A stretch of 64,000 bases of DNA from Acidimicrobiales bacterium (GTDB lineage: Bacteria > Actinomycetota > Acidimicrobiia > Acidimicrobiales > Ilumatobacteraceae), in assembly GCA_040002995.1 (NCBI GenBank), contig JBDUDK010000075.1, positions 24,160 through 88,159 of the forward strand. Reading direction: 5' to 3'. Both the position numbers and the translations under genes were made by a program. Every line of letters begins with the position of its first letter. The first letter of the stretch is position 1. The notes beneath the pieces were generated by a model that was not told the origin of the DNA, did no database searches, and saw nothing but the letters and a program-made list of their open reading frames with translations. Positions 19,951-43,469 of the stretch are shown here, one piece after another.

Positions 19951-20009
19951 CTAGGACACGAACCGGTCGCGCCCGACCCAGAACGGCGCGCGGAGATCCT
20001 TCTTCAGGA
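19951..20009. repeat. attL candidate: orphan copy of the last 19 codons plus stop of the acyl-CoA synthetase gene
   Basis: 19976..20009 is identical to 43436..43469 (34/34). Over 59 bp down to the stop codon, 50/59 match. It encodes ...LKKDLRAPFWVGRDRFVS* with no AMP-ligase body upstream. Confidence 0.7.
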
Positions 20010-20053
20010 CAGCTCCAAAGCTCCTCTGACCTTGTGGTTCGCGACCGCGCAGG

Positions 20054-20082
20054 TCTCGTTGACACTCCGTTGCCACTTTTCG
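20054..20082. repeat. Arm-type repeat, left (P' arm), between attL core and integrase
   Basis: tctcgttgacactccgttgccacttttcg matches 43270..43298 at 26 of 28 positions. It contains TGACACT / TGCCACT half-sites 11 bp apart. Confidence 0.55.
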
Positions 20083-20146
20083 TGGGCGCTGCACTTTGGA
20101 CTTCCGTGCCTCTGTATTCGGGTGTGGACACTCGGAGTGCACCGTG

Positions 20147-21604
20147 ATGCTCGATGCGTCGAGGGTGACGGTGCTCGGTGGCGGCAGGCGCAAGATCGCC
20201 ACCGCCGACCGGCGCGGCCAGTCGGTCGATCGCTACGAGGTGCGCTGGCGAGCACACCTTCGACCCGGCGGCCAACGCGACTATCGACGACGCTTCGATC
20301 GGGCGGCCGACGCCGACGAGTTCATCAGACGCCTCAAGGCCGTCGGGCTTGCGGGCAGTACCTGGGGGCTCGACGACGAGGGTCGCCCGGTCGACTGCAC
20401 GAAGCAGTCGCCCGCCACATCGAGCGCGAGTCAAGTGACCCTCTGGTCAGGACTCGTCGCCTATCGAGCAGCGACATGGCGAGGAGCATCGGGCAACGGG
20501 CGAAAGGCTGCAGCACTAACGCTGCGCGCGATGGCGAAGACGCTGAAGACGGGCGCACCTGCTATTCCGCCGGCGACGCTGGCCTATCTCGACCTCGTCG
20601 CGTTTCGACGCGAGACCGAACCGGACGACATGGAGCGCTCAATACCGGAGAAACTCGAACACGACGGCCGGATCTTCTGCGCGTCCGACATCGTCGGTGG
20701 CAGGGCCTTCCTCGATCGCTGGTCGCTTCCAATCCCCGATCTCGATCGTTCTCACGTTCGCCGGCTGATCGCTGAACTCGGGCATGGTCGTGCGGCGTCG
20801 ACCGAACGCCGACGTTGGACGCAGATGCGCGCGGTTCTTAGATGGTGGCGCGACGAGGGACTCATCACAAACGACGTCACATCACGCGTCGGCGTCATCC
20901 GCGGCACCAGCGTCCCCACGCTCGGCGACGACGAAGCCATCCCAGACGAACACGAGATGTGGTCCATGGCATGGGCCCTTTGCTTGACCGGGAAGCCACA
21001 GTACGGCGCCCTGCCGTTGGTCATGGGAGGGGGTGGCTTGCGTATCGGTGAGTGCTGCGAGCTCCGCCGTCGAGACTGCATCGACGATCCGAACGGTGGC
21101 ATGTGGCTCTCCGTTCGGGGAACGCTGGCGAAGCCCGGCCGATCGTGGACGGACTCCGGTGAAGGCACGGAGCGCCGAGGCACCAAGGCGAAGGGGCCGG
21201 ACGGCGACCTTCGCGGTCGACGCACGTACCTGCCGCCGTCGGAGGCCAGCATTCTTCGCACGCACCTCATGACCTTCACCGGACGCGCGGCAGACGCGTA
21301 CGTCTTCACGAGCATGACCGGCAAGCCGCTTGACGTCTCGCACTTGCAGGAGCGTGCGTGGAAGCACGCTCGGGAGCTGGCGTTCCCTGAACCCCATCGA
21401 CTCCACGGTGTCGGCCGCCACGCGTTCCGACATCTCGCCGCCACTCGGTGGCTTCGCGCCGGCGTACCACTGCGCACCGCTGCGAGATGGGGCGGCTGGA
21501 AGGACGTCGCCACCATGCTGCGCTGGTACGAGTCACGGCTCCCTGGCGACGACGAGTTCGCAGCGAATCGCATGTCCGTATCAACCGAATGGAGGACAAG
21601 GTGA
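20147..21604 (+). CDS. Tyrosine recombinase / phage-type integrase
   Basis: The catalytic residues are recognisable: R in GLRIGECCELRRRD, H-x-x-R in HAFRHLAAT, and Y in ATMLRWYES. The track ORF begins at 20096; the first ATG is at 20147. Confidence 0.85.
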   Translation: MLDASRVTVLGGGRRKIATADRRGQSVDRYEVRWRAHLRPGGQRDYRRRFDRAADADEFIRRLKAVGLAGSTWGLDDEGRPVDCTKQSPATSSASQVTLWSGLVAYRAATWRGASGNGRKAAALTLRAMAKTLKTGAPAIPPATLAYLDLVAFRRETEPDDMERSIPEKLEHDGRIFCASDIVGGRAFLDRWSLPIPDLDRSHVRRLIAELGHGRAASTERRRWTQMRAVLRWWRDEGLITNDVTSRVGVIRGTSVPTLGDDEAIPDEHEMWSMAWALCLTGKPQYGALPLVMGGGGLRIGECCELRRRDCIDDPNGGMWLSVRGTLAKPGRSWTDSGEGTERRGTKAKGPDGDLRGRRTYLPPSEASILRTHLMTFTGRAADAYVFTSMTGKPLDVSHLQERAWKHARELAFPEPHRLHGVGRHAFRHLAATRWLRAGVPLRTAARWGGWKDVATMLRWYESRLPGDDEFAANRMSVSTEWRTR

Positions 21605-22089
21605 GCACTCACCGCTACGTGCCCACGACGATGGACCCGGCCTCTTCCCCAAGGCCGGTTTCGAGCGCGCCGCCCACGGCGAAGTTGACGGCACTCACGC
21701 GTGGCTCGCGGGCGTACTGGATCGATGGTTCACTCACCACGGCGTCGAACTCCGGGTGCCACAGCCGAACATCGAACCCGTCGGCCTCGACATCGACCTA
21801 TGACGAATCCCGTCAGCAGCACCGAAACCCCGCCAAAGGCCAAGCCGATCAAGCGTCCCAGAAAGGCATCGAGGATGCCGTTCAACGCGTACGAACCGAG
21901 CGTTCTGGGACAACCGCTGCGAGCGCCGATCGCCGGATAGGACGCGGTTCTCTCAACTGCTGAACATTCAGTGCGCGCCAGTGAACACCGCGGGCTCGTC
22001 GCCCGCAGGACGCCCGATCCGGCGATCGGCGCCCCTTCCGCTCGAGTTACGCACAGCTGAGGCCGCGAGTTTGTTCTCCATGGTCAGGT

Positions 22090-22605
22090 TCAGCAACGGC
22101 TCGCCCCTGTGATGCTTCCGGAACCGGTGCTATCGGTGAGGTAGGTGGCTACGCCGTGTCCGTGTGCGGTCATGCCGGCGAGTTCACCGCTTCCTCCGTG
22201 GCCGATCACCGTGAAGGTGGAGGTGGCGTTTCCTAACGCGTTGATCGTCTCGTGGGTGCGCACGAGGAACGAGCCGGCCCCGCACCCGGCGACGAGTCCC
22301 GTGAACTCCTCGATGATGTCGAGGTGGTACGTCCCGCGCGGGTCCACGACGTAGCGGTAGGTGTAGGTAGAAGTCCCGTCCCAGTCGCCGGAGTACGTGG
22401 CGACGCCGAACGCCTCGCCGTGGCAAACCGCGGCAACGTTATGCGGCGCGCAGCGCAGCGACGTGAGGGTGTCCGGGCCGGATGTGTAGGTGGCGGAGAA
22501 CGGCGTAGAGGTCGAACTGGCGCCGGCGGGCAGCGCGCCGCCGATGATGAGGGTTGCTACGGCGGCGATGACGCCGAGGGCCCGAGCGGCTCTGGTCCGG
22601 TTCAT
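22090..22605 (-). CDS. Secreted hypothetical protein
   Basis: Signal peptide MNRTRAARALGVIAAVATLIIGGALPAGASS. The ATG at 22605 overlaps the upstream stop (ATGA). No family recognised. Confidence 0.5.
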   Translation of the reverse strand: MNRTRAARALGVIAAVATLIIGGALPAGASSTSTPFSATYTSGPDTLTSLRCAPHNVAAVCHGEAFGVATYSGDWDGTSTYTYRYVVDPRGTYHLDIIEEFTGLVAGCGAGSFLVRTHETINALGNATSTFTVIGHGGSGELAGMTAHGHGVATYLTDSTGSGSITGASRC

Positions 22606-23033: not shown

Positions 23034-23105
23034 GGTTTGACTCCTCATGGTTGGCGCGAGGCCTGCACCCTGGGAGGCGTAACTCCAACTGTTACGGGCG
23101 TACGC

Positions 23106-26520: not shown

Positions 26521-26840
26521 TCAACCGATCGGCCCAAGAAGTTCGGCGAGCCGCTCGGATGGTTTCATGAATCCGAGGGTCTTGCGAGGCCGATTGTTGA
26601 GGCTCCGGGCGATCCGGGCGAGCTCCTCGGCCGTAAGAACCGACAGGTCCGTGCCCTTGGGCAAGTACTGGCGAAGGAGGCCGTTGGTGTTCGCGTTCGT
26701 GCCGCGTTGCCAAGGACGGCGAACCTCAACGGCTCGCCGGCGACGTCGACCACGGCGAGCACGTTCACGTCGGGGAGTCCGACCAGCAGCTCGCACATGC
26801 GCGTACTCTCGAACTCCACAGGCGCTCTCCCGAACTCGAC
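26521..26840 (-). pseudogene. IS remnant: IS30-family transposase C-terminal fragment fused to an unrelated short N-terminal fragment
   Basis: [56 protein letters not shown] is the conserved IS30 C-terminus (26521..~26715). Upstream, in another frame, only a ~25-aa piece remains ([23 protein letters not shown]). No DDE core is present. Confidence 0.6.
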
Positions 26841-26857: not shown

Positions 26858-27646
26858 ATGGAAGAGCAGCCCCTGGTCGGTGGCATCGCGAACGTTGGCA
26901 AGGTCGTGCGGGTCGGTCAGCATGTGCTTCGCCCGCCGACCCGGCACACAGCATCCATTCGCGCCTTCCTCCGTGCGCTGGACCGGGCCGGATTCGTAGG
27001 CGCCCCACTCCCGGTCGGCATCGACGACGACGGACGAGAGCGCCTTGCTTTTATCGAGGGTGACGTCCCGCTGACGCCGTATCCCGCTTGGAGCCAGACG
27101 GACACCGCGCTCGCTTCCATCGCCCGACTGCTGCGCCAGATGCACGATGCAGCACACACCTTCGACCACCGAGATCACACCTGGAGTCACGCGCTGTCCG
27201 ACCCGGCCGGTGGGACGATCGTGTGCCACAACGACCTCGAGCCATCCAATATCGCGTTTCGCGACGGCATCGCAGTCGGGTTCATCGACTTTGAGTTCGC
27301 TGCACCCGGCCGGCCTGTCTACGACCTCGCCCAGATGGCCCGGGTCTGCGTGCCGATGGACGGCGAGGTCGACCGGGCGCGGCTCGGCTACCAACCAGCC
27401 GACCTACCAGCGCGGCTGCGGCTCGTGGCTGACGCCTACGGACTGGATCGTGACGGCCGGGCCGAGCTGCTCACGACGATGGATGTTGCCTTCGCGCGCA
27501 TCGAGGCGGCCATCCGGCGCAGCGTCGATGCCGGCAACCCGAACGCCAAGGCGCTGTGGGACCGGACCGAAGGCGGCGAGCGGTTCGACCGGCGGCGTCG
27601 CTGGTGGGCCGCGCATCACGACCAGTTCGTGGCTGCTCTTCGGTAG
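26858..27646 (+). CDS. Aminoglycoside/hydroxyurea-type phosphotransferase (APH) family kinase
   Basis: 262 aa. Catalytic loop CHNDLEPSN and metal-binding IDFEF. Confidence 0.75.
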   Translation: MEEQPLVGGIANVGKVVRVGQHVLRPPTRHTASIRAFLRALDRAGFVGAPLPVGIDDDGRERLAFIEGDVPLTPYPAWSQTDTALASIARLLRQMHDAAHTFDHRDHTWSHALSDPAGGTIVCHNDLEPSNIAFRDGIAVGFIDFEFAAPGRPVYDLAQMARVCVPMDGEVDRARLGYQPADLPARLRLVADAYGLDRDGRAELLTTMDVAFARIEAAIRRSVDAGNPNAKALWDRTEGGERFDRRRRWWAAHHDQFVAALR

Positions 27647-28571: not shown

Positions 28572-29819
28572 TTATTGGGCGGCGTTGGCTGTGCGCCCTT
28601 CGGTGCCTGGCGCGCTGCCGGTGATGGCTGACCCGGTGGCCAGGTCGAAAACCTGCATCTGCTCGACATCCACCGCGAGTTCGAAGGCTTCACCGACGTT
28701 GACTCTCGTGCGGGGATCGCATCGCGCGATGAGGAATGAGGAGGTCGTTCGGGCGAGGTCGCGTTCGGCGGTGGCGTCGAGGTCGGCGGCGATCTCGCGG
28801 AGATCCTCGGTGCGCACGGGTTTGGCGTCGATGGCCGCGTGGACCATGACGTCTGAGCCGAGGGCTTCGACCAGTTCGACGATGACCTTCACGCGTCGGC
28901 GGGGTGACATGTCTGGTCGTATTTGTGCGTCTTGAAGGTGTTCGGGGCGGATGCCGATGGCGATGGTGAGGCCGTCATAGCCGTTTAGCGCGGGTCGACG
29001 GCCGAGCAGCGCTGGAGTTAGTTCGAGAGCGGTGGTTCCGACGAGCACGTGGGGCTCGCCGTTCGTGAGCCGTACGGTCCCCTCGAGGAGGTTCATTGAT
29101 GGTGATCCGATGAAGCCGGCCACGAAGAGATTGACGGGTCGTTCGTAAAGATCGGCCGGGGTGGCGACTTGTTGGAGAACCCCGCGGCGCATGACGGCTA
29201 CACGGTCCCCCATCGTCATGGCCTCGACTTGATCGTGGGTGACGTAGAGGGTGGTGACGCCGAGCCGTCGTTGGATACGCGCGATTTCGGCTCGCATTTG
29301 AACCCGGAGCTTGGCGTCGAGGTTCGAGAGGGGCTCGTCCATGAGAAAGGCGCGCGGTTCTCGCACGATGGCGCGGCCCATGGCGACGCGCTGACGTTGA
29401 CCTCCGGAGAGTTGTTTGGGCTTGCGGTCTAGGAGGTCGGTGAGGTCGAGGACTCGGGCTGCCTCCTCGACTCGCTCGTCGCGTTGGGGCCTTGGCACGT
29501 GTCGGAGGCGTAGGCCGAATCCCATGTTCTGACGCACGCTCATGTGCGGGTAGAGCGCGTAGTTCTGAAAAACCATGGCGATGTCGCGCTTCTTGGCGGG
29601 GATGTCGTTCACGATGTCATCGCCGATCCGCAGAGTGCCGGACGTGACGTCTTCGAGGCCTGCCACCATGCGCAGCGATGTCGTTTTGCCGCAGCCGGAT
29701 GGTCCGACGAGCACCAGAAACTCGCCGTCGCCGAGGGCTAAGTCGAGGTCCTCGACGGCCACAACACCGTTGTCGAAGATCTTGGTGACATGCTCAAACA
29801 GAATTTCGGCCATGGTCAC
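28572..29819 (-). CDS. Sugar ABC transporter ATP-binding protein (MalK/UgpC/MsiK type)
   Basis: 415 aa. GPSGCGKTT, LSGGQRQRVAMGRA and FLMDEPLSNLD, plus the C-terminal regulatory (TOBE-like) domain. Confidence 0.9.
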   Translation of the reverse strand: MTMAEILFEHVTKIFDNGVVAVEDLDLALGDGEFLVLVGPSGCGKTTSLRMVAGLEDVTSGTLRIGDDIVNDIPAKKRDIAMVFQNYALYPHMSVRQNMGFGLRLRHVPRPQRDERVEEAARVLDLTDLLDRKPKQLSGGQRQRVAMGRAIVREPRAFLMDEPLSNLDAKLRVQMRAEIARIQRRLGVTTLYVTHDQVEAMTMGDRVAVMRRGVLQQVATPADLYERPVNLFVAGFIGSPSMNLLEGTVRLTNGEPHVLVGTTALELTPALLGRRPALNGYDGLTIAIGIRPEHLQDAQIRPDMSPRRRVKVIVELVEALGSDVMVHAAIDAKPVRTEDLREIAADLDATAERDLARTTSSFLIARCDPRTRVNVGEAFELAVDVEQMQVFDLATGSAITGSAPGTEGRTANAAQ

Positions 29820-29837
29820 CTCTTCCGGTGGGAGCGT

Positions 29838-30872
29838 TCATTGGATGGTGTGGGTGACCTTGGCGAGCCCTGCGGCAACGTCGGGATTTTGTCCTCGCTG
29901 CTCGGCGAGTGCGGCGGCAATGAGTTGGCCGGCCACCGTTAGAACGATCGGAGCGAGAGGTTCAGGTAGGTCGGGTCCGGTCACCCAACCGTCGGCGAGC
30001 GCCGCGAGGCTTGCGTGGCCGCCGACGGCGGTCACCGCGGCGGAAGCGGCACGAGCCGTGTGGGCGATCGCGGTGAGTCCGTTCAACGTGGGACCCGCGG
30101 CTGGCCCGATCAGCAGGACGCCGACGCCGGGCCGCAGGACGGCCGCAGGTCCGTGCTGCAGCTCGGCTGCGGAGATGGCGTAGCTGGGGATGGCCGCGGC
30201 CTCGACGATTTTCAGCGCCGTTTCTTGAGCGGTCGAAAGGGTGAGGGCGCGGCCGACGGCGAGGATCAGGTCTTGAGCTCCCAGGACGTCCACGACGGGT
30301 CGTATGTTGGCGAAGAGTTGGCGCTCTGCGGCTGCCGGTAGATCGCGCAGGTGCGCCGCCCAGGCTGGGCGGCGCTCCGCGAGGGCGAGCGCGATAAACG
30401 CGAGCGCGACCATGGCAGCGGTGAACGACTTCGTGGCAGGCACGGCACGCTCGACCCCCGTGGGCGTGACCACGGCAAGCCCGCACGCGGCGGCGAGCGA
30501 ACTGTCGGCAGTGTTGGTGAGGGCAATGGTGGCGGCCCCGTGCGACCGCGCCCACAAGGCGCACTCCTCGAGCTCCTCGGACTTGCCCGACTGGGAAATA
30601 AAAATGGCGAGAGTCTGTCCGAGATCGACAGCGGCGCGGAACAGAAACCCGATGGACGGCTCACCAAGACCGACCGGTAGGCCGGCCGTGACCTCGATGA
30701 GGTAGCGGCCGTATACGGCCGCGCCGCGGGAGCTACCTCGCCCGAAGAGCAGTACGTGACGCCGCCCGGCACCGACGCGGGCGATGTCTGGGACCACACC
30801 CTCCATAGCGTCGAGAGTGGCGGCGATGGCGGTGGGTTGTTCGGCGATCTCGAGGCGCATGTGCGAGGTCAT
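29838..30872 (-). CDS. Tandem-SIS-domain protein (GlmS isomerase-domain / AgaS / FrlB-like)
   Basis: EIAEQPTAIAATLD...LLFGRGSS...FISQSGKSEE...ALTN is a first SIS domain, and a second SIS-like half follows. The ATG at 30872 overlaps the upstream stop (ATGA). Confidence 0.75.
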   Translation of the reverse strand: MTSHMRLEIAEQPTAIAATLDAMEGVVPDIARVGAGRRHVLLFGRGSSRGAAVYGRYLIEVTAGLPVGLGEPSIGFLFRAAVDLGQTLAIFISQSGKSEELEECALWARSHGAATIALTNTADSSLAAACGLAVVTPTGVERAVPATKSFTAAMVALAFIALALAERRPAWAAHLRDLPAAAERQLFANIRPVVDVLGAQDLILAVGRALTLSTAQETALKIVEAAAIPSYAISAAELQHGPAAVLRPGVGVLLIGPAAGPTLNGLTAIAHTARAASAAVTAVGGHASLAALADGWVTGPDLPEPLAPIVLTVAGQLIAAALAEQRGQNPDVAAGLAKVTHTIQ

Positions 30873-31939: not shown

Positions 31940-32982
31940 CAGCTGATGGCCACTCGTGGAAGCTGGGCCGCAAACCTCCACGCGGCGTCAGCATCGGCAT
32001 CGGTGAGATCACGCACATCGGCGAGGCCGACGTCGAGATCCTCGGCGCGTGCGTAGCCCCGCAGACTGACGAAGATGGGGCCGAAGACGTCGATTCCGAT
32101 GTCGAGGTCGAGCGGGTGGGCTCGGGTCCCGCACCGCCCGACGACGTCGAGGACCCAGCCTGGGTCGTTGTCCTGGGCGTGCGCGACGGCGGCAACGGCG
32201 AAGGCGACGAGTTCGCCGTGGATATGCCGTGCGCCGGTGGCGTGCTCGTAGGCGTAGGCCACGAAGTGCTCACTGCCTTCCTCGAAGCGGCTGTGACCGG
32301 CGGCCGCGCCCGCAGCGCCGACACGGGCGTACGCGTCGGCGAGCCACCGGACGGCGGCGGGCGTGACAGCGCGCACGTCCGCGGCGGCGGCATCGAGTTC
32401 GGCCAGGAGGCTAGCGGCGAGATGGGCGAGGTCGGCGCGCCACGCGGGTCCCTTCCCGACGGCGGCGGCGGCGCGCCAGTCCCACAGCGCGCTGTGGCAC
32501 GACAGGATGTCGCCGATCCCGGCGCGGTTGAGGTGCGGCGGCGCCGACCGGATAAGTCCTATGTCGAGCACCACTATGCGGGGCTCCATGTGCCCGACGT
32601 ATCGCACTCGCCCGTCGACTCGGACGCCGACGGCGTCGGTGAACCCGGCGTCCACCGAGGTGATCGTCGGGATCTGGATCAGTGGTCGGCTGGTGGACCA
32701 CGCCAGGTATTTAGCGGTGTCGAGGGCGGTGCCCCCACCTACGCCCACGACGACCCGCCCGTTGTCCGGCACGGCCGCGAGTGCTTGCAGATGCGCGAGC
32801 TCCATCGATCCAGCAAGTATCAGTTTCGCCGGCAGCCGTGGGAGGCGATCGGCGATCGCGGACCACGGGGGATCGTTGGCGACCACTAGAGCAGGCTCGT
32901 CGAGGTCGCCTAAGACCTCGAGCGCAGCAGCCTCCACGATGGGGAACGGTCGACCGATCACTACCGCCGGTTCGGCGGTCAT
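31939..32982 (-). CDS. Iron-containing alcohol dehydrogenase superfamily, glycerol-1-phosphate-dehydrogenase (AraM/EgsA)-like, copy 1
   Basis: 347 aa. VGVGGGTALDTAKY and RFEEGSEHFVAYAYE...HGELVA. About 40% identical by eye to 39563..40570. Confidence 0.65.
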   Translation of the reverse strand: MTAEPAVVIGRPFPIVEAAALEVLGDLDEPALVVANDPPWSAIADRLPRLPAKLILAGSMELAHLQALAAVPDNGRVVVGVGGGTALDTAKYLAWSTSRPLIQIPTITSVDAGFTDAVGVRVDGRVRYVGHMEPRIVVLDIGLIRSAPPHLNRAGIGDILSCHSALWDWRAAAAVGKGPAWRADLAHLAASLLAELDAAAADVRAVTPAAVRWLADAYARVGAAGAAAGHSRFEEGSEHFVAYAYEHATGARHIHGELVAFAVAAVAHAQDNDPGWVLDVVGRCGTRAHPLDLDIGIDVFGPIFVSLRGYARAEDLDVGLADVRDLTDADADAAWRFAAQLPRVAIS

Positions 32983-34202
32983 GTGCGTAACTCGTGGGCG
33001 TGAGCCTTTACTTTGGCTAGCGCTGCAACCACAGTGTCACAGTCGGCGGCGGTTCCCATGAGGACAGCGGTCTTGAACCAGAGAGTGTCCGACGCCAGCC
33101 GGTCGGTGACGGGACAATCGACGTTGGCATAGTCGGGCATGCCGTCGCGATCTTTGTAGCGGGGAGCGAAGCCGTCTGGGTCGCGGAAGCAGTCGACCCT
33201 GTGGATGGGGGGGTAGGACATGGTCAACGGGATGCCCTCGGCTTCGAGCGCCAGCCGTATTTGTTCGCGCGAAACGCCGAACATCTCGGGATCGATGCGC
33301 ACCACGTAGCAGTAGTTGCCCTGACTTGTGCAACGAGGGTCGCGCGTCTGGGGATGGACTCCAGGGATTTCAGCCAGGGCCGCGTTGAGGTGGTCGGCGT
33401 TGATGGCCCGCCGAGCCTGTTGGGCGGGGAAGCGCTGGAGCTGGGCGAGAAGTACAGCGCCCTGCCACTCCGTCATCCGGTAGTTGCCGCCGAGCGTGTA
33501 ATGCGCATAGAACCATTCGCCGGGTCGACGGCCACAGTCGCTGAAGGACCGGACGGCGACAGCCACCTCGGGGCGAGCCGAAACGACGACTCCGCCTTCA
33601 CCGCCGGTCATTAACTTGGACGCTTGAAAGGAAAAGGCGCCTGCGTCGCCGAGCGTGCCCACGGGGCGATCCCGCCAGGTGGACCCGTGCGCGTGAGCGC
33701 AATCCTCGATGAGGGCCAGGTGGTGGCGGGCACACAACTCGGCGAGCCGGTCCATGTTCGCGGGGTGGCCGGCGACGTGGACGGCGATGATCGCTGCGGT
33801 GCGCGGCCCGATAGCCGCGGCGGCGAGGTCCGCGTCGAGGCATCCGGTGCTTAGTTCCACGTCGACGAGTACGGGGACCGCGTTCACCATGAGCACCGCG
33901 GTTGCGGTGGCGACGAATGACCAGTCGGGCACGATGACTTCGTCGCCTTCGCCCACGCCGAGAGCGAGCAACGCCATCTCGAGGGCGTGCGTGCCGTTGG
34001 TGACGGCAACGCCGGGCGGCGTCCCGAAGGTGTCGCCCCACGCCGTTTCGAAGGCTCGCACCTTGGTACCTTGGCTCGCCCACCACTCGCCACTGTCGAG
34101 CACCTCGAGCAGCAGCTCGCGTTCATTGCCGTCGTGGACCGGCCAAGCCGGAAAGGGCGTGGTTCGTACCGGTACGCCACCGGCGGCGGCCAGCTCAGGC
34201 AT
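32979..34202 (-). CDS. DegT/DnrJ/EryC1/StrS-family PLP-dependent aminotransferase
   Basis: 407 aa. PLP-lysine region AFSFQASKLMTGGEGG, with a typical N-terminus (WP..D..E...L..VL.SG.W). Confidence 0.85.
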   Translation of the reverse strand: MPELAAAGGVPVRTTPFPAWPVHDGNERELLLEVLDSGEWWASQGTKVRAFETAWGDTFGTPPGVAVTNGTHALEMALLALGVGEGDEVIVPDWSFVATATAVLMVNAVPVLVDVELSTGCLDADLAAAAIGPRTAAIIAVHVAGHPANMDRLAELCARHHLALIEDCAHAHGSTWRDRPVGTLGDAGAFSFQASKLMTGGEGGVVVSARPEVAVAVRSFSDCGRRPGEWFYAHYTLGGNYRMTEWQGAVLLAQLQRFPAQQARRAINADHLNAALAEIPGVHPQTRDPRCTSQGNYCYVVRIDPEMFGVSREQIRLALEAEGIPLTMSYPPIHRVDCFRDPDGFAPRYKDRDGMPDYANVDCPVTDRLASDTLWFKTAVLMGTAADCDTVVAALAKVKAHAHELRT

Positions 34203-34229
34203 ATCGATCGCCCAAGGAGTCGGGTCTGG

Positions 34230-35429
34230 TCATGATATTGCACTCCCATCGAAGAGCGCGGCGCGGGCGTGCCGGCGGGCCAAAGTGATGGCGCCAACGA
34301 CGCCGCCGCGGGTGCCCAGGGCGCTGGCGGTCACTTCGATCGGGAACGGCGCGATGCGCTCGACGGCCGCGCGCACGGGTGCGAGCAGGTGGGGGTTCGT
34401 GCCGACGCCACCACAGAGCACGACCAGCTCGGGGTCGATGATGGCCGCCACCGACAGGATGGCCCACGCCAGAAGGCGGGCTTCGTCGGCCACGATCATC
34501 GTGGCGATCTCATCGCCGGTCGCGGCGGCCGCGAAGATGTCCTCCACCGTGCTATCCACCTCAAGCAGGCTTGAGGGGCGACCGTCGAGTGCGTGGCGTA
34601 GCGCGGCCGTGATCGCCGGGCCAGAGGCCGCCGTCTCGAGCGCGCCGCGACGTCGCGACTCGACGAGGGCGGGATCGGCCCCCAACGGGAGAAAGCCGAT
34701 TTCCCCGGCTGCGCCGTGGCGGCCGCGGAATAGTTCGCCGTTGACGACCAGACCGAGACCGACCCCTGTCCCAACGGCCAGAGCGGCAAACGTCTGGCAA
34801 TGAGTAGCGACACCACTTGCGTGCTCGGCGAGGGCGGCCAGGTTCACGTCGTTTTCGACGATGACTGGTGTCCGCAGCGCCCGCTTGAGCTCTTGGCCGA
34901 GGCGCACCTCACCGAGGCCGGCAACATTCTCGGCGAGGGCCAGTCGGCCGCCGGGCTGTACGACGCCCGGCGAGCCGACAGCCACCGCGCGAACCTTGCG
35001 CCACGGCACGCCCGCCCGCAGGGTGAGTCCTTTGGCGATCGTGGCCAGCTGGCCCACAACCGCGGCTCCCGGCCCGTGACGACTGGTGACCATTGTTTCT
35101 TCGGCGAGGACGTCGCCGTTCAGATCAGCTAAGGCAGCGCGAACCTTCGAGCCTCCCAAATCGATGCCGACGACGAGGCCGGCTTGAGGGTCTGGTTCGA
35201 ACATCACAGGGCTGCGGCCTGGGCTGCCGTTGCGTTGCGCCGCCCCGGCTCGGATGAGACCAGCCTCCTCGAGCGCAGTCACCAAGCCCAACACGGTGGG
35301 TTTGGATAAACCGGTCAGTTCGGCCAGGCGGTGACGGGTGATCGGACCGTGAAGCGACATCGCGCGAAGTACGGCTTGCTCGTTGGCCCGACGGACCAGG
35401 GCGTGGCGGTCGAGACCGGGCAGGCTCAT
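34230..35429 (-). CDS. ROK-family transcriptional regulator (N-terminal wHTH + ROK sugar-kinase-like fold)
   Basis: 399 aa. HTH is ITRHRLAELTGLSKPTVLGLVTALEEAGLI. ROK body is GIDLGGSKVRAAL...ENDVNLAALAEH. Confidence 0.8.
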   Translation of the reverse strand: MSLPGLDRHALVRRANEQAVLRAMSLHGPITRHRLAELTGLSKPTVLGLVTALEEAGLIRAGAAQRNGSPGRSPVMFEPDPQAGLVVGIDLGGSKVRAALADLNGDVLAEETMVTSRHGPGAAVVGQLATIAKGLTLRAGVPWRKVRAVAVGSPGVVQPGGRLALAENVAGLGEVRLGQELKRALRTPVIVENDVNLAALAEHASGVATHCQTFAALAVGTGVGLGLVVNGELFRGRHGAAGEIGFLPLGADPALVESRRRGALETAASGPAITAALRHALDGRPSSLLEVDSTVEDIFAAAATGDEIATMIVADEARLLAWAILSVAAIIDPELVVLCGGVGTNPHLLAPVRAAVERIAPFPIEVTASALGTRGGVVGAITLARRHARAALFDGSAIS

Positions 35430-35433
35430 CCGA

Positions 35434-36273
35434 TCATTCCTTGACCGCTCCCGAGCTGAGACCGCTCACGAGCTGACGCTGGATCAGCACTGTTAGCAAT
35501 GCGATGGGCACGATGGCCAACGAGCTGGCAGCCGCCATGGGCCCCCAGTCGAGCGTCCGGTTCGAGATGAACCCGCTGATGTAGACGGGCAACGTCTCGG
35601 CGTTGTTGCCCGCAAGGATCACCGGAAGAAGGAACTCGTTCCAATTCAATAGCGCAACGAAGATCATCGTGGCCGCTATTCCCGGCAAGGCGAGCGGGGC
35701 GATCACGAAGACAAACAGATGGAACCTGCCCGCGCCGTCGGTTCGCGCGCATTCCTCGACCTCGATAGGGATCTGCTCCAGAAACGATGTCATGAGCCAA
35801 ATCGAAAACGGCAGGTTGACCGTGGCGTAGATCACCACCATCGTCGGGCGCGAGTCGTAGAGACCAAACCGGGTGACGAGCTGATAGATGGGCACGATGA
35901 GCACGATGCCCGGCATGGCCCGGACCAGCACGAGAGTGGCTTCGAGAGGACGGCGTCCGTGGAACCGACGATGGCGGGCGAGGGCGTATGCGGCTACACC
36001 GCCGACCACGACACACAGCACCGTGGATGCCAAGGTGATAACGACGGTGTTGACGTAGACGCGTAGGAACTGGGGCCTGCCGAACAGGTCTCGATAGTTC
36101 TTCCAGGTGGCGGCGAAGTTGAAGAATTTAGGCGGGTTCGCGTAAGAGTCGACGCGGTCCTTCACGCTCGTTGACACGGTCCAGAACAAGGGGAACAACG
36201 CGGTCAGGGCGGCGATGATGAGCACGGCGTAAGCGGCTACGCGCCCTGCCCGGCTCCCGCGGGCGGCGCTCAC
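35434..36273 (-). CDS. Carbohydrate ABC transporter permease (CUT1, MalG-like)
   Basis: The track ORF (404 aa) is trimmed to the GTG at 36273, which overlaps the upstream stop (GTGA). The product has six-TM topology and an EAA-like loop (ECARTDGAGRFHLF). Confidence 0.85.
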   Translation of the reverse strand: MSAARGSRAGRVAAYAVLIIAALTALFPLFWTVSTSVKDRVDSYANPPKFFNFAATWKNYRDLFGRPQFLRVYVNTVVITLASTVLCVVVGGVAAYALARHRRFHGRRPLEATLVLVRAMPGIVLIVPIYQLVTRFGLYDSRPTMVVIYATVNLPFSIWLMTSFLEQIPIEVEECARTDGAGRFHLFVFVIAPLALPGIAATMIFVALLNWNEFLLPVILAGNNAETLPVYISGFISNRTLDWGPMAAASSLAIVPIALLTVLIQRQLVSGLSSGAVKE

Positions 36274-37232
36274 TTGTTGGCTCGTACAGCGCGGGTCCAC
36301 AGCAGGTAGACGGGAATCGTGAATACGGCGAGCACCACGCCGATGGCTGCCGCCCGGGAGATCTGCAAGAAGTTGAACCCGGTGTTGTAGTCGAGCAACC
36401 CCACCGTTTGCGTCGCGGTGCCCGGGCCACCGCGGGTGAGAATGAAGATGATGTCGAACAGTTTGGCCGCGTCGATGACACGGATCATCAAGATCACATA
36501 GAGCACGGGACGCAGCATCGGAAAGGTGACGAACCAGAACGTCTGCCATGCCGACCCGCCGTCGACGCGGGCCGCTTCCATCGGACTCTCGGGGAGCCCG
36601 GCCAGACCGGCGAGAGTTAGGAGCATGACGAAGGGAATGGCCTGCCACGAGTCGACAAGGACGATGGCTACTACAGCGCTGTGTTGGTCGCCGAGCCAGT
36701 CGACGTGGCCTAGACCCACGGTCTGCAGAAGCCAGTTCATGACGCCGAGGTCCGAATCAAGCATGAACCGCCACATGATTCCCACCGCGACCGGTGTGAG
36801 CAGCATCGGGATCAGCAGCGCCGAGCGGAAGAATCGGGTGCCGCGCAGGTTGCGGTGCAGCAAGAGAGCGAGACCGATTCCGGCCGGCAGTTGGATGGCG
36901 AGGCCCATCAACGCGATGACGGCCGTGGTCTTGACCGCATCGTAGAAGGTGCTGGTAAAGACATCGCGACGGAAGTTGCTAAAGCCCACAAAGCGTCCAC
37001 GGGCGAACGAGCCGATCGCCTCGTTGCGAAAGGAGAGGTAGACGCCCACGGCGATGGGCACCGCGAACAACGTCAGGAGCAGGACCCAAGCGGGGAGGGT
37101 GAGGACGGCGGCGCCAAGTCGACGCCGCCGAGCCGACCATCCCGGTCGCCTGGAGCGGGTGGCACGCTCGGGCCGCCCGGCCGGGATGGCAGCACTGCCC
37201 GGTTCAGGCAGGGTCCCGGCCGGAGCGGTCAT
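36270..37232 (-). CDS. Carbohydrate ABC transporter permease (CUT1, MalF-like)
   Basis: 320 aa with EAA loop MEAARVDGGSAWQTFWFVTFP. The start shares one base with the SBP stop (TGATG). Confidence 0.85.
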   Translation of the reverse strand: MTAPAGTLPEPGSAAIPAGRPERATRSRRPGWSARRRRLGAAVLTLPAWVLLLTLFAVPIAVGVYLSFRNEAIGSFARGRFVGFSNFRRDVFTSTFYDAVKTTAVIALMGLAIQLPAGIGLALLLHRNLRGTRFFRSALLIPMLLTPVAVGIMWRFMLDSDLGVMNWLLQTVGLGHVDWLGDQHSAVVAIVLVDSWQAIPFVMLLTLAGLAGLPESPMEAARVDGGSAWQTFWFVTFPMLRPVLYVILMIRVIDAAKLFDIIFILTRGGPGTATQTVGLLDYNTGFNFLQISRAAAIGVVLAVFTIPVYLLWTRAVRANK

Positions 37233-38566
37233 CAGCCTTTTTCGCCGGCCAGGATCGGCCCGAGCGCCTTCTCAAGGCCGTCGAGCCCCGACTTCACGTC
37301 GGACTTCCCAGTGAAGATGTTGGTGATGGTGTCCTGGATGGCCTTGTCCATTTCCGGCCACACCTTCAGTTGCGGGTAGCGCTCGATCCGGCTCGTGGAA
37401 GGAATGTTCAACAGTTTGAGATAGGGCTCCTTAGCCACAAGATCCGCGTTGGACGTAATCGACTCACGCCCGATAGCCGCGGCCCCCGCATTGAGGAAGT
37501 TGATGGCATTGGCCTTGCCGAGAACGAACTCGAGAAACTTCCACGCTGCGTCCTTGTTCTTGGAGTCGGCCGGGATGCCGATATTCCAGCCGGCGAGGTG
37601 GGTGATGTCGGCGGTGCCCATCGGCATCTTCGCCGTGCCGATCTTGCCGACGTACTTGTTCGTCTTGGGGTCCTGCATAAACCCGTAGTACCCCGAGTAC
37701 TGGATCATGGCGCCGATGTCCTGGGAGATGAACTTGCCGGTCACCCCATCGCCGTCGACACTCAGCGCGCCCTCGGGGGCGAGAGGAAGCAGACTCTTCA
37801 TGTACTCGGTGGCTTTGACGGCCTCGGGGGTATTGACCGTCGGCTGCAAATTGTCGTCGTAGAGCTTGCCGCCGAAGCTCCACACCAGGGTCATCCACCA
37901 CCACGTGGCCGCCGGGCCGAAGTCAATGAGCGCGCCATCACCCTTACCTGCCGCCTTGACCTTCTCCGCGTTCGATTTGAACTCGTCCCATGTTGTCGCC
38001 GGCTTGAGACCGAGCGCATCGTAGATATCTGTGCGGTACCACTGGATCATCGGCTCCGTCGACAACGTGAGTCCGAGGGTTGACCCGCCGTACTTGCCGT
38101 AGTCCTGTTGACCCTGAGAAAAGTCGGCAATGTCATAAGCACTGCTCTTCGCCAAATAGTCGTCGAGAGGGGTCATCACCTTGGCGGCGCCGAAGGCAGC
38201 TAGGAACGTGTTGTCGAACTGGGCCACGTCGTACGCGCCCTTCTTTTGTTGATAGCTCAGCAGCTCCTTCTGGTGCGCTTCGCCGTAGGGCGTCTCGGTG
38301 AAGTTCACCTTTATTCCGGTCTGCTTCGTGAACTCGGGAATGAACGACTGGATCGCCGTGCTCGAAGGACTAGGGATGAGAAAAACATTGATCTCACCGC
38401 TGGGCGGCGCCGTGGAGCCGACGCCAGCGACAGACGTGTTGGAGCCGGCGACAGTCGTGCCACTCGAACTTTTCGAACTGCTGCCGCAAGCGGCGGCCAC
38501 CACGCTCACCGCAAGAATCACGCTTGCCGCCACGAGCCGACGGCGTCGCCCAGATGTCGCTCCCAT
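37232..38566 (-). CDS. Extracellular solute-binding lipoprotein (family 1, sugar type)
   Basis: Lipobox VVAAACGSSS. The ATG at 38566 is preceded by GGGAGG; the track ORF starts 4 codons earlier at a TTG. Confidence 0.85.
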   Translation of the reverse strand: MGATSGRRRRLVAASVILAVSVVAAACGSSSKSSSGTTVAGSNTSVAGVGSTAPPSGEINVFLIPSPSSTAIQSFIPEFTKQTGIKVNFTETPYGEAHQKELLSYQQKKGAYDVAQFDNTFLAAFGAAKVMTPLDDYLAKSSAYDIADFSQGQQDYGKYGGSTLGLTLSTEPMIQWYRTDIYDALGLKPATTWDEFKSNAEKVKAAGKGDGALIDFGPAATWWWMTLVWSFGGKLYDDNLQPTVNTPEAVKATEYMKSLLPLAPEGALSVDGDGVTGKFISQDIGAMIQYSGYYGFMQDPKTNKYVGKIGTAKMPMGTADITHLAGWNIGIPADSKNKDAAWKFLEFVLGKANAINFLNAGAAAIGRESITSNADLVAKEPYLKLLNIPSTSRIERYPQLKVWPEMDKAIQDTITNIFTGKSDVKSGLDGLEKALGPILAGEKG

Positions 38567-38705
38567 AGTGCCTCCCAATCTCCGGGCGGCCTGCCCCCGC
38601 AGGATCCACCACCCCTATTCGCAGGGACATAACAAGTACAAGCGGATCCCAACGAATAAGTCAATAGTATTTACCGAATAGCACGCAGAGGGTTATCGTG
38701 CCCCG
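38567..38705. promoter_or_regulatory. Divergent control region of the sugar-type locus (GC-poor, repeat-bearing)
   Basis: 139 bp between divergent starts and visibly AT-richer than its surroundings. GGATCC occurs at 38602..38607 and 38644..38649. TATTCG (38616..38621) is inverted against CGAATA (38653..38658), and a third CGAATA lies at 38675..38680. Confidence 0.4.
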
Positions 38706-39566
38706 ATGGCTCACGTCCGCGACATCGAGCCCGGTGCCCAACGAGTAGTGCTCATCGTGGTCGCTCACGCCGACGATCCCACGCTCTTCGTTGGTGGAAC
38801 CATCGCCCGGTGGGCCGACGCTGGGTGGCGGGTCGTCGTGGTGCGGGCGACCGATGACCGGTGGGACTCCGTCGGGCTGTCGGAAACTGAGACGATCGAA
38901 CGCAGCGCGCTCGAGTTGCAACAAGCCGCCCACGTGCTGCGCATCCACCGCATCGTCGATCTGGGCATGGCCACCGACTCACTCGGCGACGCGAGCGAAG
39001 TCGCCCTGCGCGAGCAGATCATCAGGGAGATCCGACGGTGGAAGCCGTACGCCTTGGTCACGTTTGACCCGTACGCCATGTACGGCGAAGACAATCAGGA
39101 CCATGTCCTTGTTGCAGCAGCAACCGACGAAGCGTTCTGGACTAGCCAGTTTGACAAACATCACCCCGAGCAAACCGCCCAGGGCCTCGCGCCGCACGGC
39201 TGCTTCGAACGGTGGTATTTCGGACGCCGCGTTATCGACGTCACCGACGTCGTCGATACCACCGACACCTTGGAACGCAAAGTGGACGCGGCTTTGTGTC
39301 ACGACGCCGCGCTGCGAAACCTCGTCCACCAGCTTCGCCTACAAGCCCACACCGGAGGCTGGCAAATCCCCGCACTGGACACCGCCCTCGATGGCGACCT
39401 CCGCCCCGTCGTCGAGCCCCTCATCCGAGGCGCCGCCCAACGCACCGGAGCCCGATATGGACTCAACGCTGCCGAAGAGTTCCGAATCGTACGCTTCGGT
39501 GGACTCGCGGACTTCCTCACGGAGCACGGACAGCCCCTCGACCGCTTCCCCGATTCGCCCACATGA
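38706..39566 (+). CDS. PIG-L/LmbE-family N-acetylglucosaminyl deacetylase
   Basis: 286 aa. VVAHADDPTLFVGGT (AHxDD zinc motif) and a downstream DNQDH. Confidence 0.8.
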   Translation: MAHVRDIEPGAQRVVLIVVAHADDPTLFVGGTIARWADAGWRVVVVRATDDRWDSVGLSETETIERSALELQQAAHVLRIHRIVDLGMATDSLGDASEVALREQIIREIRRWKPYALVTFDPYAMYGEDNQDHVLVAAATDEAFWTSQFDKHHPEQTAQGLAPHGCFERWYFGRRVIDVTDVVDTTDTLERKVDAALCHDAALRNLVHQLRLQAHTGGWQIPALDTALDGDLRPVVEPLIRGAAQRTGARYGLNAAEEFRIVRFGGLADFLTEHGQPLDRFPDSPT

Positions 39567-40570
39567 TCGACGCGAATGGCTTCCCCACGGTCTACGGCCG
39601 CGGCCTGCTCGCTGCGCTCGTCGCCGACGTCGACCGCTATGTAGTGGTCACTCAACCCGAACCGTGGGCGGTCATGCAGCCGACCCTCGACCACCCTCCC
39701 GCCGCCGTGATCCAAGCCGGTGACCTGCGGCCCGCACACCTCGATGACCTGGCCAGCAACCTGCCCGACGTCGATCTGATCGTCGGCGTCGGCGGCGGCT
39801 CCGCAATGGACACCGCCAAGTGGGTGCACTGGCGACGCCAGCTCCCGCTGGTCCAAGTGCCGAGCCTGCCTTCGGTCAACGCCTGCTTCACTCGCATGAC
39901 CGCGCTCCGCATCGCTGGCGGCGTGCGTTACGAAGGCGATGCGATACCCGAACAAGTGCTCGTCGACTTCGACCTCATGTCCGCCGCCCCACCCTCCCTT
40001 GTCCGGGGGGGAATCGGCGACGTGCTCTCCTGCCACACCGCTCGCTTCGACTGGCACCTCGCCGTCAACAACAACTACGAGCCTGCCTGGGACGAGGAGG
40101 CCGCCACCATGTCGCTCCGCTATCTCGACGAGCTCGAGTCCCTCGCACCATCGCTTGCTGCCGGAACCGACGACGGTATCCGCGCGCTGATGGAACTTCA
40201 CCGCGACATTGGGTGGCGTTGCCATGAGCTCGGCCACGCCCGCTTCGAAGAAGGAAGCGAACACTTCTTCGCCTACGCCTTCGAGGAAGTCACCGGCCGC
40301 ACCATCATGCACGGAGAGCTCGTCACCGTCGGCGTGCTGATCATGAGCACCCTCCAAGGCAACCGACCTGAACGGCCGCGCTCTATCGCCGACCGAGTAG
40401 CCATGCGCACCGACCTCAACCAACTTGGAATCTCCTGGGACGAAATCGCCACCGCACTGCGCCGACTTCCCTCCTTCGTCACCGAACAACAGCTCTGGTA
40501 CTCGATCATCGACGAACTCGTCATCGACGAGCGCGCGCTAGCCGCTGCCCGTGCCGCCCTGGACCAATGA
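39563..40570 (+). CDS. Iron-containing alcohol dehydrogenase superfamily, glycerol-1-phosphate-dehydrogenase-like, copy 2
   Basis: The ATG at 39563 overlaps the PIG-L stop (ATGA). VGVGGGSAMDTAKW and RFEEGSEHFFAYAFE...HGELV. The N-terminal 117 codons of the track ORF are an Arg-rich out-of-context extension and were dropped. Confidence 0.65.
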   Translation: MIDANGFPTVYGRGLLAALVADVDRYVVVTQPEPWAVMQPTLDHPPAAVIQAGDLRPAHLDDLASNLPDVDLIVGVGGGSAMDTAKWVHWRRQLPLVQVPSLPSVNACFTRMTALRIAGGVRYEGDAIPEQVLVDFDLMSAAPPSLVRGGIGDVLSCHTARFDWHLAVNNNYEPAWDEEAATMSLRYLDELESLAPSLAAGTDDGIRALMELHRDIGWRCHELGHARFEEGSEHFFAYAFEEVTGRTIMHGELVTVGVLIMSTLQGNRPERPRSIADRVAMRTDLNQLGISWDEIATALRRLPSFVTEQQLWYSIIDELVIDERALAAARAALDQ

Positions 40571-42068: not shown

Positions 42069-42365
42069 TCACACGATGCGGGTAGACCAGTGGGGTGCTG
42101 GCTGCGGGTTGGTCGGCGTAGAGCCGGCGGCCTTCGCGTCGATCAGCTCGATGAAACCCTTCTCGGTGTTCAGCTTCTGCTCGGCTCGCTCCAGCTCAGC
42201 GACGTTGGCGAAAGCGGTCAACCACGACACCCCGCCGTCGTTGCCGGTCGAGTCGGCGAGGAACGCCGTAGGCAGCCCGGTGATCTGCTCGGCCCGCTGG
42301 GCGGTCTCGACCCCTAAAAGCAATCCCCGCGACACCCGACCGGCGCCGGTGGGGCCGCTGTACAT
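42069..42365 (-). CDS. Hypothetical small protein
   Basis: The protein-like composition and codon bias (…LTAFANVAELERAEQKLNTEKGFIELIDAKAAG…) contrast with the Arg-rich shadows around it. No family recognised, and the start is uncertain. Confidence 0.35.
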   Translation of the reverse strand: MYSGPTGAGRVSRGLLLGVETAQRAEQITGLPTAFLADSTGNDGGVSWLTAFANVAELERAEQKLNTEKGFIELIDAKAAGSTPTNPQPAPHWSTRIV

Positions 42366-42447
42366 CTCGCCCGCCTCTGGCGCATGGCTGACGGCACGTT
42401 CCACAACAACGAGCGACCAAGAACTCGACTCGGGGCCGCAGCGCTAC

Positions 42448-43134
42448 GTGCTGCTGCGCGGCGACATCTTGCACGTCGGTCTAGCCGTGCCCACCGACCC
42501 CAACACCGAGGTCCGCGGCGCCGTATCACCGGCCAACGCCACCGCCGACCAAATCGATCCGACCGTGCTCGGTCCGATCACCGCCCACAAGCTAGGGACC
42601 TACCTGGTACCCGACACACCCTCCGCCAACCAAATCAGAGACAAGTTCGCCGACCTGGCCGACTACGTCTCGCAAGTGCCTGGCCTCGACACGAACTGCG
42701 ACGCCACTGCGCCCGACACGAGCGCGGCGCCCGACACCAGCGAGTCGCCCACGTCGGTGACCGCCACCGACCGGCACTACTCGGGAGAGTTCGTGGACTT
42801 TGGCTCGACCCACTTCCCGGTCGTGTACGCGAGCAACCACATCGAAGTCGTCGTCCACCCCGACGGATCGGTGGATGGCTCCTACGAAGTCTCCTACACC
42901 GAAGATCTTCACAATCTCGTCGAGTACACCTGGCCCAGCAAGAAGACATACACGGTCAGCGGCACCCTGCGGATGGAGGCCGGCTCATCAAGTCTCGGGG
43001 ACGGCCAGACCGTGCACATCTCTGAGCCGGCCCCCACCCTCGACGGCTGCCAAGGCGACCACGGTATCTATGGGCACAGCCGGTTGCGGTGCTATCAACG
43101 ATCTCAGCGACACCCAAGTACTCGGCGGCGTTGA
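42448..43134 (+). CDS. Hypothetical protein, probably truncated and/or frameshifted
   Basis: Coding-like sequence (…HYSGEFVDFGSTHFPVVYASNHIEVVVHPDGSVDGSYEVSYTEDLHNLVEYTWPSKK…). There is no ATG, only a GTG at 42448, and no signal peptide. The C-terminus looks better in the frame ending at 43183. Confidence 0.3.
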   Translation: MLLRGDILHVGLAVPTDPNTEVRGAVSPANATADQIDPTVLGPITAHKLGTYLVPDTPSANQIRDKFADLADYVSQVPGLDTNCDATAPDTSAAPDTSESPTSVTATDRHYSGEFVDFGSTHFPVVYASNHIEVVVHPDGSVDGSYEVSYTEDLHNLVEYTWPSKKTYTVSGTLRMEAGSSSLGDGQTVHISEPAPTLDGCQGDHGIYGHSRLRCYQRSQRHPSTRRR

Positions 43135-43269
43135 CGTCTACGCCCACGGCCCCGGCTGCACACTCGCATCATCCGGCGGATAGCCAGCCAACCACCACGA
43201 GGCACCCGCGTTTCAAACATAGCCGCACCCACGAACTTAGAAGAGACACACCACCGCGGTCCCCCAGCG

Positions 43270-43298
43270 TCTCGATGACACTCCGTTGACACTTTTCA
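43270..43298. repeat. Arm-type repeat, right (P arm)
   Basis: tctcgatgacactccgttgacacttttca holds two TGACACT copies 11 bp apart. It matches 20054..20082. Confidence 0.55.
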
Positions 43299-43410
43299 GC
43301 GGTGTGCAGCGGTCACCTCCGGTTCGTGGCGGTCACTGCCAGTCAGATGCCCTCGCTACCAAAGAGCCATATTCGCCCAGCTCAGCGGCTACGCCGGCAC
43401 TTCCGACCGG

Positions 43411-43469
43411 CTACGATACGAAGCGTGTACGACCCACCCAGAACGGCGCGCGGAGATCCTTCTTCAGGA
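43411..43469. repeat. attR candidate (functional 3' end of the acyl-CoA synthetase gene)
   Basis: See attL. The 34-bp perfect core lies at 43436..43469. Confidence 0.7.

Follow-up and report, generated by a model that had tools for sequence, protein, structure and literature searches.

Repeats and genes at the integration locus

The 64,000-nucleotide (nt) stretch of Acidimicrobiales contig JBDUDK010000075.1 analyzed here (the window) carries, next to the fadD gene for a long-chain-fatty-acid--CoA ligase, a segment with a gene for a tyrosine recombinase (integrase) that an earlier note on this DNA had described as a genomic island inserted into the 3' end of the ligase gene. The limits of this segment are marked by a 34-bp direct repeat, ACCCAGAACGGCGCGCGGAGATCCTTCTTCAGGA, exact copies of which were present in the window at 19976-20009 and 43436-43469, both on the plus strand. 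No additional copy appeared in the window when three mismatches were tolerated and no match was obtained in 100 shuffles; the possibility, raised in the earlier note, that the repeat is dispersed was not borne out at this scale.

The right copy lies at the 3' end of an intact open reading frame (ORF) for a 520-amino acid (aa) ligase, the last gene of a same-strand cluster that also encodes two acyl-CoA dehydrogenases, an enoyl-CoA hydratase and a nitroreductase. The left copy belongs to a stub of 20 codons, similarity to the ligase ending at the repeat boundary. From the 34-bp core to the respective minus-strand stop codons (19951 and 43411), an extra 25 nt matched at 16 positions, for a total of 50 matches in 59. 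Read on the minus strand, the left copy gives ...LKKDLRAPFWVGRDRFVS and the right copy ...LKKDLRAPFWVGRTRFVS, each followed by a stop codon, with the C-termini GRDRFVS and GRTRFVS, respectively. The integrase ORF starts 135-138 bp from the left core, and no tRNA genes were found in the window. The repeat, the partial identity beyond it, the paired (D/T)RFVS termini, the intact ligase, the orphan stub and the recombinase gene, placed about 140 bp from the left copy in the earlier note, were thus all recovered as previously described. Features of the locus are listed in Table 1.

Table 1. Features at and between the two fadD-like termini of the window, with the evidence for each
Feature	Position	Strand	Evidence or comment
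P-arm-like sequence outside attL, with motif TGGCACTCCAATGGCAC at 19817-19833	19780..19950	+	Putative remnant of a second, adjacent element
Orphan fadD terminus (GRDRFVS and stop), displaced resident, native-like	19951..19975	-	21-23/25 nt identical to the termini of L083, L084 and L090
attL, left 34-bp att core	19976..20009	+	Exact repeat; minus strand encodes LKKDLRAPFWV
Arm-type motif TGACACTCCGTTGCCAC, int-proximal (P') arm	20060..20076	+	50 bp inside the left core, between core and int
Tyrosine recombinase (integrase), 485 aa	20147..21604	+	PF00589, 45.8 bits vs cut-off 27.1; alternative GTG start at 20144
DUF3224 protein	22090-22665	-	Pfam
SnoaL-like protein	22602-23048	-	Pfam
AAA_16 / STAND-like ATPase, 1095 aa	23106..26393	-	Pfam AAA_16, 1.4e-22
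IS30-family transposase remnant, C-terminal ~60 aa left	26521..26796	-	tblastn, 70-73% identity to annotated IS30 transposases
APH-family phosphotransferase	26858..27646	+	Pfam PF01636
Sugar / amino-sugar uptake and conversion locus, 12 kb	28572..40570		Pfam, NCBIfam
Two ORFs with coding signal, no family	42069-42404; about 42385-43134	-; +	GC3 frame analysis
Arm-type motif TGACACTCCGTTGACAC, int-distal (P) arm	43276..43292	+	160 bp left of the right core
Replacement fadD terminus (GRTRFVS and stop), element-supplied	43411..43435	-	17-18/25 nt identical to the relatives' native termini
fadD target, 520-aa long-chain-fatty-acid--CoA ligase	43411..44973	-	AMP-binding and AMP-binding_C (Pfam); NCBIfam NF004837, 565 bits
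attR, right 34-bp att core	43436..43469	+	Exact repeat, within intact fadD

Uninterrupted sites in relatives and the source of the two termini

Four homologs of the window FadD were found at 95-97% identity, of which three ended in ...WVGRDRFVS, the terminus of the left stub, and one in ...AGRDRRVS; the C-terminus of homologs P0002, P0003 and P0005 was as in the left stub. The terminus of the window FadD, shared with its match P0001, was ...GRTRFVS, and exact-protein look-ups of these two proteins returned no record. P0001 and a match to the integrase, P0121, were listed at 100% identity in the protein database, and both derive from one contig of an Acidimicrobiales MAG (metagenome-assembled genome). 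In GTDB genomes the closest FadD sequences came from metagenome-assembled genomes (MAGs) of Acidimicrobiales or other Acidimicrobiia at no more than 64% aa identity, so that species representatives offered no close empty site.

Contigs carrying three of the four homologs were the relatives compared with the window (average nucleotide identity about 91%). Nucleotide identity was 91.6% for L083 (JGI; window 54967-43402), approximately 90.6% over fadD for L084 (ENA) and 92.3% for L090 (ENA; window 46298-43408), and homology was lost 9 bp after the fadD stop codon, at the stop codon and 3 bp after it, respectively. Synteny of the fadD cluster was kept in L083 and L090, and downstream fadD of L083 is separated by 10 bp from the end of a convergent PAP2/LPG-synthase gene. 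Each of the three contigs contained one copy of the repeated segment and a FadD ending in ...GRDRFVS, and neither an integrase nor an arm motif of the kind described below was found in the 0.5-2.6 kb of contig downstream of fadD. The search for an empty site proposed in the earlier note was answered in this way by three single-copy loci.

Comparison with these relatives distinguished the two copies in the window. On the side of the gene body, the relatives aligned with the right copy and the left copy diverged immediately at the core boundary. At the terminus itself, the left stub was the nearly native sequence, matching the relatives at 21-23 of 25 nt, as opposed to 17-18 of 25 for the terminus of the intact gene, the rest of which was about 91% identical to its counterparts. 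This poor match indicates that the terminus now on fadD came from the element. As judged from the aligned sequences, such a pattern is the signature of recombination between attB and a putative attP that carried a diverged gene end.

Taken with the linkage of similar stubs to integrase genes at other loci (see below), these findings agree with the earlier proposal of insertion into a 3' end with supply of a replacement terminus, and we consider it very probable that 20010-43435, together with one 34-bp core, is an integrative genomic island that entered an Acidimicrobiales chromosome by the site-specific action of a tyrosine recombinase. By this mechanism, attP on the element would have carried a look-alike of the last 20 or so codons of a fadD-type acyl-CoA ligase gene, and strand exchange would have occurred within the 34-bp stretch that encodes LKKDLRAPFWV. 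Integration would then have joined the fadD body to the last 8 codons of the element (GRTRFVS and stop), whereby the enzyme stays full length, and would have left the earlier terminus (GRDRFVS and stop) stranded next to the gene for the integrase. The attB restored by excision would consist of the fadD body, the core and CGGGCGCGACCGG...TAG, followed by the window from 19950 leftwards.

The integrase and its putative arm-type sites

Residues R299, H425, R428, W451 and Y461 of the integrase, assigned as the catalytic R, H-x-x-R, W and Y, were invariant in an alignment of 20 homologs, and the ORF was full length with all of these residues present; the conserved Lys of the beta-hairpin is not among the catalytic residues assigned in this alignment. 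An AlphaFold2 model (pLDDT 82.6) placed a three-stranded sheet and a helix at the N-terminus (residues 4-64), followed by a helical core-binding domain (approximately 99-236) and the catalytic domain. In Foldseek comparisons of the latter two domains, the best match was Tn1549 Int (E = 5e-8), followed by XerH, Cre and lambda Int (E values to 5e-5). The N-terminal sheet and helix were predicted with high confidence and gave no Pfam match to an arm domain. A module of this kind is the arm-binding domain architecture of lambda and Tn916 integrases, and the modelled domain of the present integrase probably binds arm-type sites as well.

The nearest annotated relatives of the integrase were 'site-specific integrases' of Streptomyces plasmids, and matches among plasmids were limited to Streptomyces and Nonomuraea integrases, in both cases at 26-31% identity. 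No match was obtained in 50,697 GenBank phage records or in IMG/VR, and no phage-type domains were found in the island; a prophage was rejected on these grounds.

Sites to which such a domain might bind were evident near both ends of the island. A 17-bp motif, TGRCACTCCRWTGVCAC, consisting of two TTGNCAC half-sites 11 bp apart, occurred three times in the window where 0.03 occurrences were expected, each time on the plus strand and near a copy of the core. The motif of the P' arm was noted at the equivalent position upstream of int in L085-L089, L091-L094, L096, L099 and L111-113, which are other loci of the integrase family, and the right P arm aligned with the P arms beside the fadD ends of L100, L103 and L096, which also keep further blocks such as a CCAGCTCAG box. 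Given this conserved placement, the joining of 43469 to 20010 rebuilds an attP in the order P arm, replacement terminus, core, P' arm and int. Lambda-type integrases work through the binding of arm-type sites, and the motifs in the window are putative arm-binding sites of a heterobivalent system of the lambda type, in which the N-terminal domain of the integrase would bind the TTGNCAC pairs, one located 50 bp in from the left end of the island and the other 143 bp in from its right end.

Distribution of the integrase family

A search of 5.8 billion proteins identified 54 homologs of the integrase at E <= 1e-10, all metagenomic and, where named, from Acidimicrobiales or Ilumatobacteraceae. The family is apparently small and restricted to Acidimicrobiia. 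Among the 30 family loci examined, an orphan ligase C-terminus was present 100-140 bp upstream of int and on the opposite strand in about 20 (L085, L086, L088, L089, L091-L094, L096-L099, L101, L105, L107, L108 and L111-L113, some of which are mutual duplicates), the stub typically reading ...ILKKDLRAPYWEGRSRNVN before the stop codon. The other loci included six with too little upstream sequence, two with 5'-truncated integrases (L100 and L102), one with a different stub (L104) and two that were weak partial integrase matches only (L114/L115).

Whole elements with an intact ligase gene at the far end were noted in L103 (approximately 3.3 kb) and L100 (approximately 5.6 kb). Those in L107 and L108 (5.7-5.9 kb) are whole elements with a perfect 53-bp direct repeat and an integrase 37% identical to that of the window. 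On the side facing the gene body, the repeat in L107 has its edge at the same ILKK codons as in the window, which indicates that the fadD target is a conserved property of the whole family. Comparison of the cargo of 17 other members with that of the island by tblastx gave chance-level chains only, except in the P arm. The parts common to the family are int and the att arms; the cargo is variable, and the size of the elements ranges from approximately 3 to 23 kb.

No description of fadD-targeting islands in Acidimicrobiia was found in the literature. We put forward tentatively the broader view that these loci represent an undescribed, Acidimicrobiia-wide family of minimal elements, composed of an integrase plus att arms, which all home to the end of one ligase gene and stack there in tandem. 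If so, the 3' end of fadD would be the main landing pad for accessory genes in an abundant uncultured lineage, and members of about 3 kb, having no transfer genes, would have to be carried along by some helper, for instance a virus, a conjugative element or vesicles.

Two further observations were made on individual members. At 5120-5200 of L104, a clade whose integrase is 47% identical carries another orphan stub, ...FSKKELRDRFADYTLPTA and stop; a direct repeat was not found within 10 kb, and this clade may target the end of another acyl-CoA-ligase-like gene. In small members of 4-6 kb (L096 at 1854-3034 and L100 at 2985-3725), a conserved protein of 246-248 aa is encoded directly after int and, in L096, is followed by a protein of 144 aa; by eye, these resemble a toxin-antitoxin pair of DUF433-like and PIN-like proteins.

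Alternative explanations

Several observations weigh against, or limit, the interpretation of this segment as a site-specifically integrated and still mobile island. The first concern the flanks. Contigs of the relatives reach just 0.5-2.6 kb past fadD, and the sites were called unoccupied on the basis of an absent P arm and a native-type terminus rather than a long conserved flank. The DNA that follows fadD differs in L083, L084, L090 and the window, the regions compared (L083 11564-14176, L084 5617-8089 and L090 2899-3431 versus the window from 19950 leftwards) being completely different. Such divergence among four related genomes marks the position directly after fadD as a hot spot or a breakpoint of synteny.

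Other observations concern the assembly. The window is part of a metagenome-assembled contig, and neither junction was spanned by an independent contig. Logan unitig L002 (SRR26386605), an independent sequence of the same strain that matched window 18908-20005, ends inside the core, exactly 30 nt (k-1) into its 34 bp. A break at this position would follow from the existence of two predecessors of the core in the k=31 graph of that sample, which would then hold either both repeat copies or a second fadD allele that shares the core. A look-up with the cupredoxin gene of the left flank returned two unitigs of approximately 1.1 kb only, both ending at or before the core and uninformative on the junctions. 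An assembly artefact, by which unrelated contigs were joined at a short fadD-like sequence with no real island between the repeats, could be entertained for a MAG contig with a repeat that branches in assembly graphs, as the break in L002 indicates. Such an artefact is nevertheless very improbable, since both reads and the k-mers used by modern metagenome assemblers exceed the 34-bp repeat in length, since independent contigs of other samples (L100, L103, L107 and L108) carry the complete order from stub, arm and int through to arm and intact fadD and since the contrast between native and foreign termini is the prediction of a biological event, not of a chimera.

The present mobility of the island is a separate matter. 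Pfam and NCBIfam searches of its ORFs detected no gene for an excisionase or a relaxase and none for replication, conjugation or phage functions, and a scan of JGI metagenome contigs with degenerate attB, attP, attL and attR patterns gave 0 matches, either to a circular junction or to an identical empty site, a negative result that is weak because the same collection also lacked the known relative L083. The scar of the IS30 transposase and the stretches without coding signal at 27.7-28.5 and 40.6-42.0 kb are signs of some decay, and the island may on this account no longer move. It is quite possible, if somewhat short of an even chance, that the segment is a fossil, inserted by the same mechanism but now fixed and immobile, its excision and transfer functions lost and its DNA ordinary chromosome. 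In addition to the missing excisionase and transfer genes and the signs of decay, the composition of the island is nearly that of the host, and decayed members occur elsewhere in the family (the array in L096, the degenerate stub in L092 and the truncated integrases in L100 and L102). On the other hand, the integrase ORF is full length with every catalytic residue, and both arm motifs and the perfect 34-bp core are intact despite the freedom of the left copy from coding constraint. Excisionases, moreover, are small, diverse and easily missed in profile searches; the small ORFs near both ends gave no match to HTH_17/Xis-type or other excisionases, a result subject to the same reservation. The island may still be able to excise, and it would presumably have reached this chromosome by transfer between cells.

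The last of these observations concerns the outer side of attL, which resembles the P arm of another element. The motif at 19817 lies 159 bp to the left of the left core, as compared with 160 bp for the P arm of the island itself, and window 19780-19975 aligned with the P arms of other family members in a multiple alignment. A Smith-Waterman alignment of the two regions left of the cores gave a score of 21 versus a shuffle mean of 18.7, which is not significant by score alone, so that it is motif register and multiple alignment that speak for a second P arm. The order P arm, stub, P' arm and int was also noted in L091 and L099, and in L096 an element is followed by a second, truncated junction. 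On the simplest reading of these findings, fadD is a site of tandem stacking for elements of the family, and the island lies directly beside at least the remnant of another. In consequence, what adjoins the island on the left may be a second element and not native chromosome, and the stub may be the terminus of that element rather than the original chromosomal one.

The chance comes close to even that the locus is such a composite. On this view, 19951-20009 would join two elements of one family, the second of which lies, or once lay, directly to the left, and the acquired DNA would continue beyond 19951 on that side, perhaps across the cupredoxin gene and a gene for a 1604-aa surface protein. 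The difference of the DNA past fadD among all four related genomes is in keeping with a tandem array, as are the P-arm alignment and register and the arrangements in L091, L099 and L096. Against it, neither a second integrase nor a third fadD stub was found in 1-19950, the genes of the left flank are those of ordinary metabolism with a host-like GC content at third codon positions (GC3) of 0.83, and the terminus of the stub is nearly identical to the native terminus of the relatives, which is most simply explained if it is the original chromosomal end. The question bears on the left limit of the acquired DNA, and the conclusion that 20010-43435 is an integrated island is unaffected by it.

In a search for synteny, the left flank had only a luciferase-like gene (approximately 70-75% aa identity) and a weak match to the beta-lactamase family in common with those of L085 and L089, not in collinear order. 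The 1604-aa product of the plus-strand ORF at 14314-19128 is a Thr/Ala-rich, secreted, surface-type protein. Its Ig-like (Big_1/MG4) repeats number about nine, and it has in addition a poly-Pro linker and, at the C-terminus, seven repeats of approximately 42 aa of the type GYWLVASDGGIFAFGNA; the opposite strand of this gene shows misleadingly gene-like ORFs of high GC3, interrupted by stop codons.

Relationship to known systems

Integration into the 3' end of a protein-coding gene with replacement of its terminus is already known. In E. coli, the 3' end of icd is the integration site of lambdoid phage 21 and of e14, which likewise involve a tyrosine integrase, a diverged copy of the terminus and orphaning of the native one; these are, respectively, a prophage and a prophage remnant of Enterobacteria, whereas the present island has no phage genes and differs in host and target. 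Elements of the ICESt1/ICESt3 type sit in the 3' end of fda, and other integrative and conjugative elements (ICEs) and integrative and mobilizable elements use the 3' ends of housekeeping genes and undergo tandem accretion. Points in common between the ICESt1/ICESt3 type and the family of the island are insertion into the 3' end of a metabolic gene, direct-repeat att sites, variable cargo and, apparently, tandem arrays in which neighbours have decayed, but no relaxase, coupling protein or FtsK-like Tra was found in the island, the phylum is another and the integrase is unrelated in sequence.

The usual targets of actinomycete ICEs, among them pSAM2 and SLP1, are tRNA genes, and these elements bring with them xis, rep and an FtsK-like tra. 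Common to these elements, to the integrases of Streptomyces plasmids and to the present family are an actinobacterial host, a tyrosine recombinase, an N-terminal domain of sheet plus helix and arm-type repeats, the latter two as predicted for the present family; the target of the island is, in contrast, protein-coding, and xis, rep and FtsK-like tra were not detected among its ORFs. The Tn1549 and Tn916 integrases are the closest solved structures by fold, with sequence identities of 14-16%. Integrases of the Tn916 type are relaxed in their choice of target, as opposed to the strict tie of the window integrase family to one gene end. The island belongs to the same class as the integrase-bearing islands, bounded by att repeats and mapped against the uninterrupted site, of the TIGER/Islander catalogue (PMC12424338).

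Conceptually, the island adds nothing to integration of the icd or fda type. Apparently new are the integrase family, its fadD target, the arm motif and the distribution restricted to Acidimicrobiia. Soils, fresh water and wastewater commonly harbour uncultured Acidimicrobiia, whose mobile elements have barely been described; with a defined integrase family, att site, arm motifs and target, islands in MAGs of this class may be mapped systematically. Integration at this site also explains the break in gene order directly after fadD in every relative examined, and the system could serve as a tool for site-specific integration in actinobacteria that carry the fadD gene.

Cargo and composition of the island

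The 12-kb locus that occupies much of the island encodes, in order, a MalK-type ABC ATPase, a SIS protein (GlmS-C/NagB-II-like), a GFO/IDH/MocA oxidoreductase and an Fe-ADH_2/G1PDH-like protein, and then a DegT aminotransferase, a ROK protein, two permeases, a solute-binding protein, a PIG-L deacetylase and a second Fe-ADH_2-like protein. By its gene content, it looks like a unit for uptake and conversion of amino sugars or related carbohydrates. This locus and the IS30 fragment correspond to the self-contained transport and metabolic locus and the insertion sequence remnant of the earlier note. The 'decayed genes' also mentioned there were found only in part; the non-coding stretches noted above are in line with decay, but most of the cargo ORFs look intact.

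The 1095-aa ATPase is probably a regulator. It showed in addition a weak nSTAND3 match and partial similarity to a TOMM kinase/cyclase fusion, and PADLOC gave no defence match for it. No defence genes were identified elsewhere in the island with the same program, and the ORFs at 21448-21963, 42069-42404 and 42385-43134, like the small ORFs near both ends, had no family in Pfam, NCBIfam or PADLOC.

Comparison of base composition, as suggested in the earlier note, set the island apart in one respect only. GC3 of the island genes was 0.79 as compared with 0.83 in both flanks (p = 6e-4), but tetranucleotide profiles failed to separate island from flanks. A composition so near to that of the host suggests a donor in the same broad lineage.

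C-terminal remnants of IS30-family transposases were present in two otherwise unrelated members of the integrase family, at 26521-26796 on the minus strand of the window and at 11497-11880 of L107.

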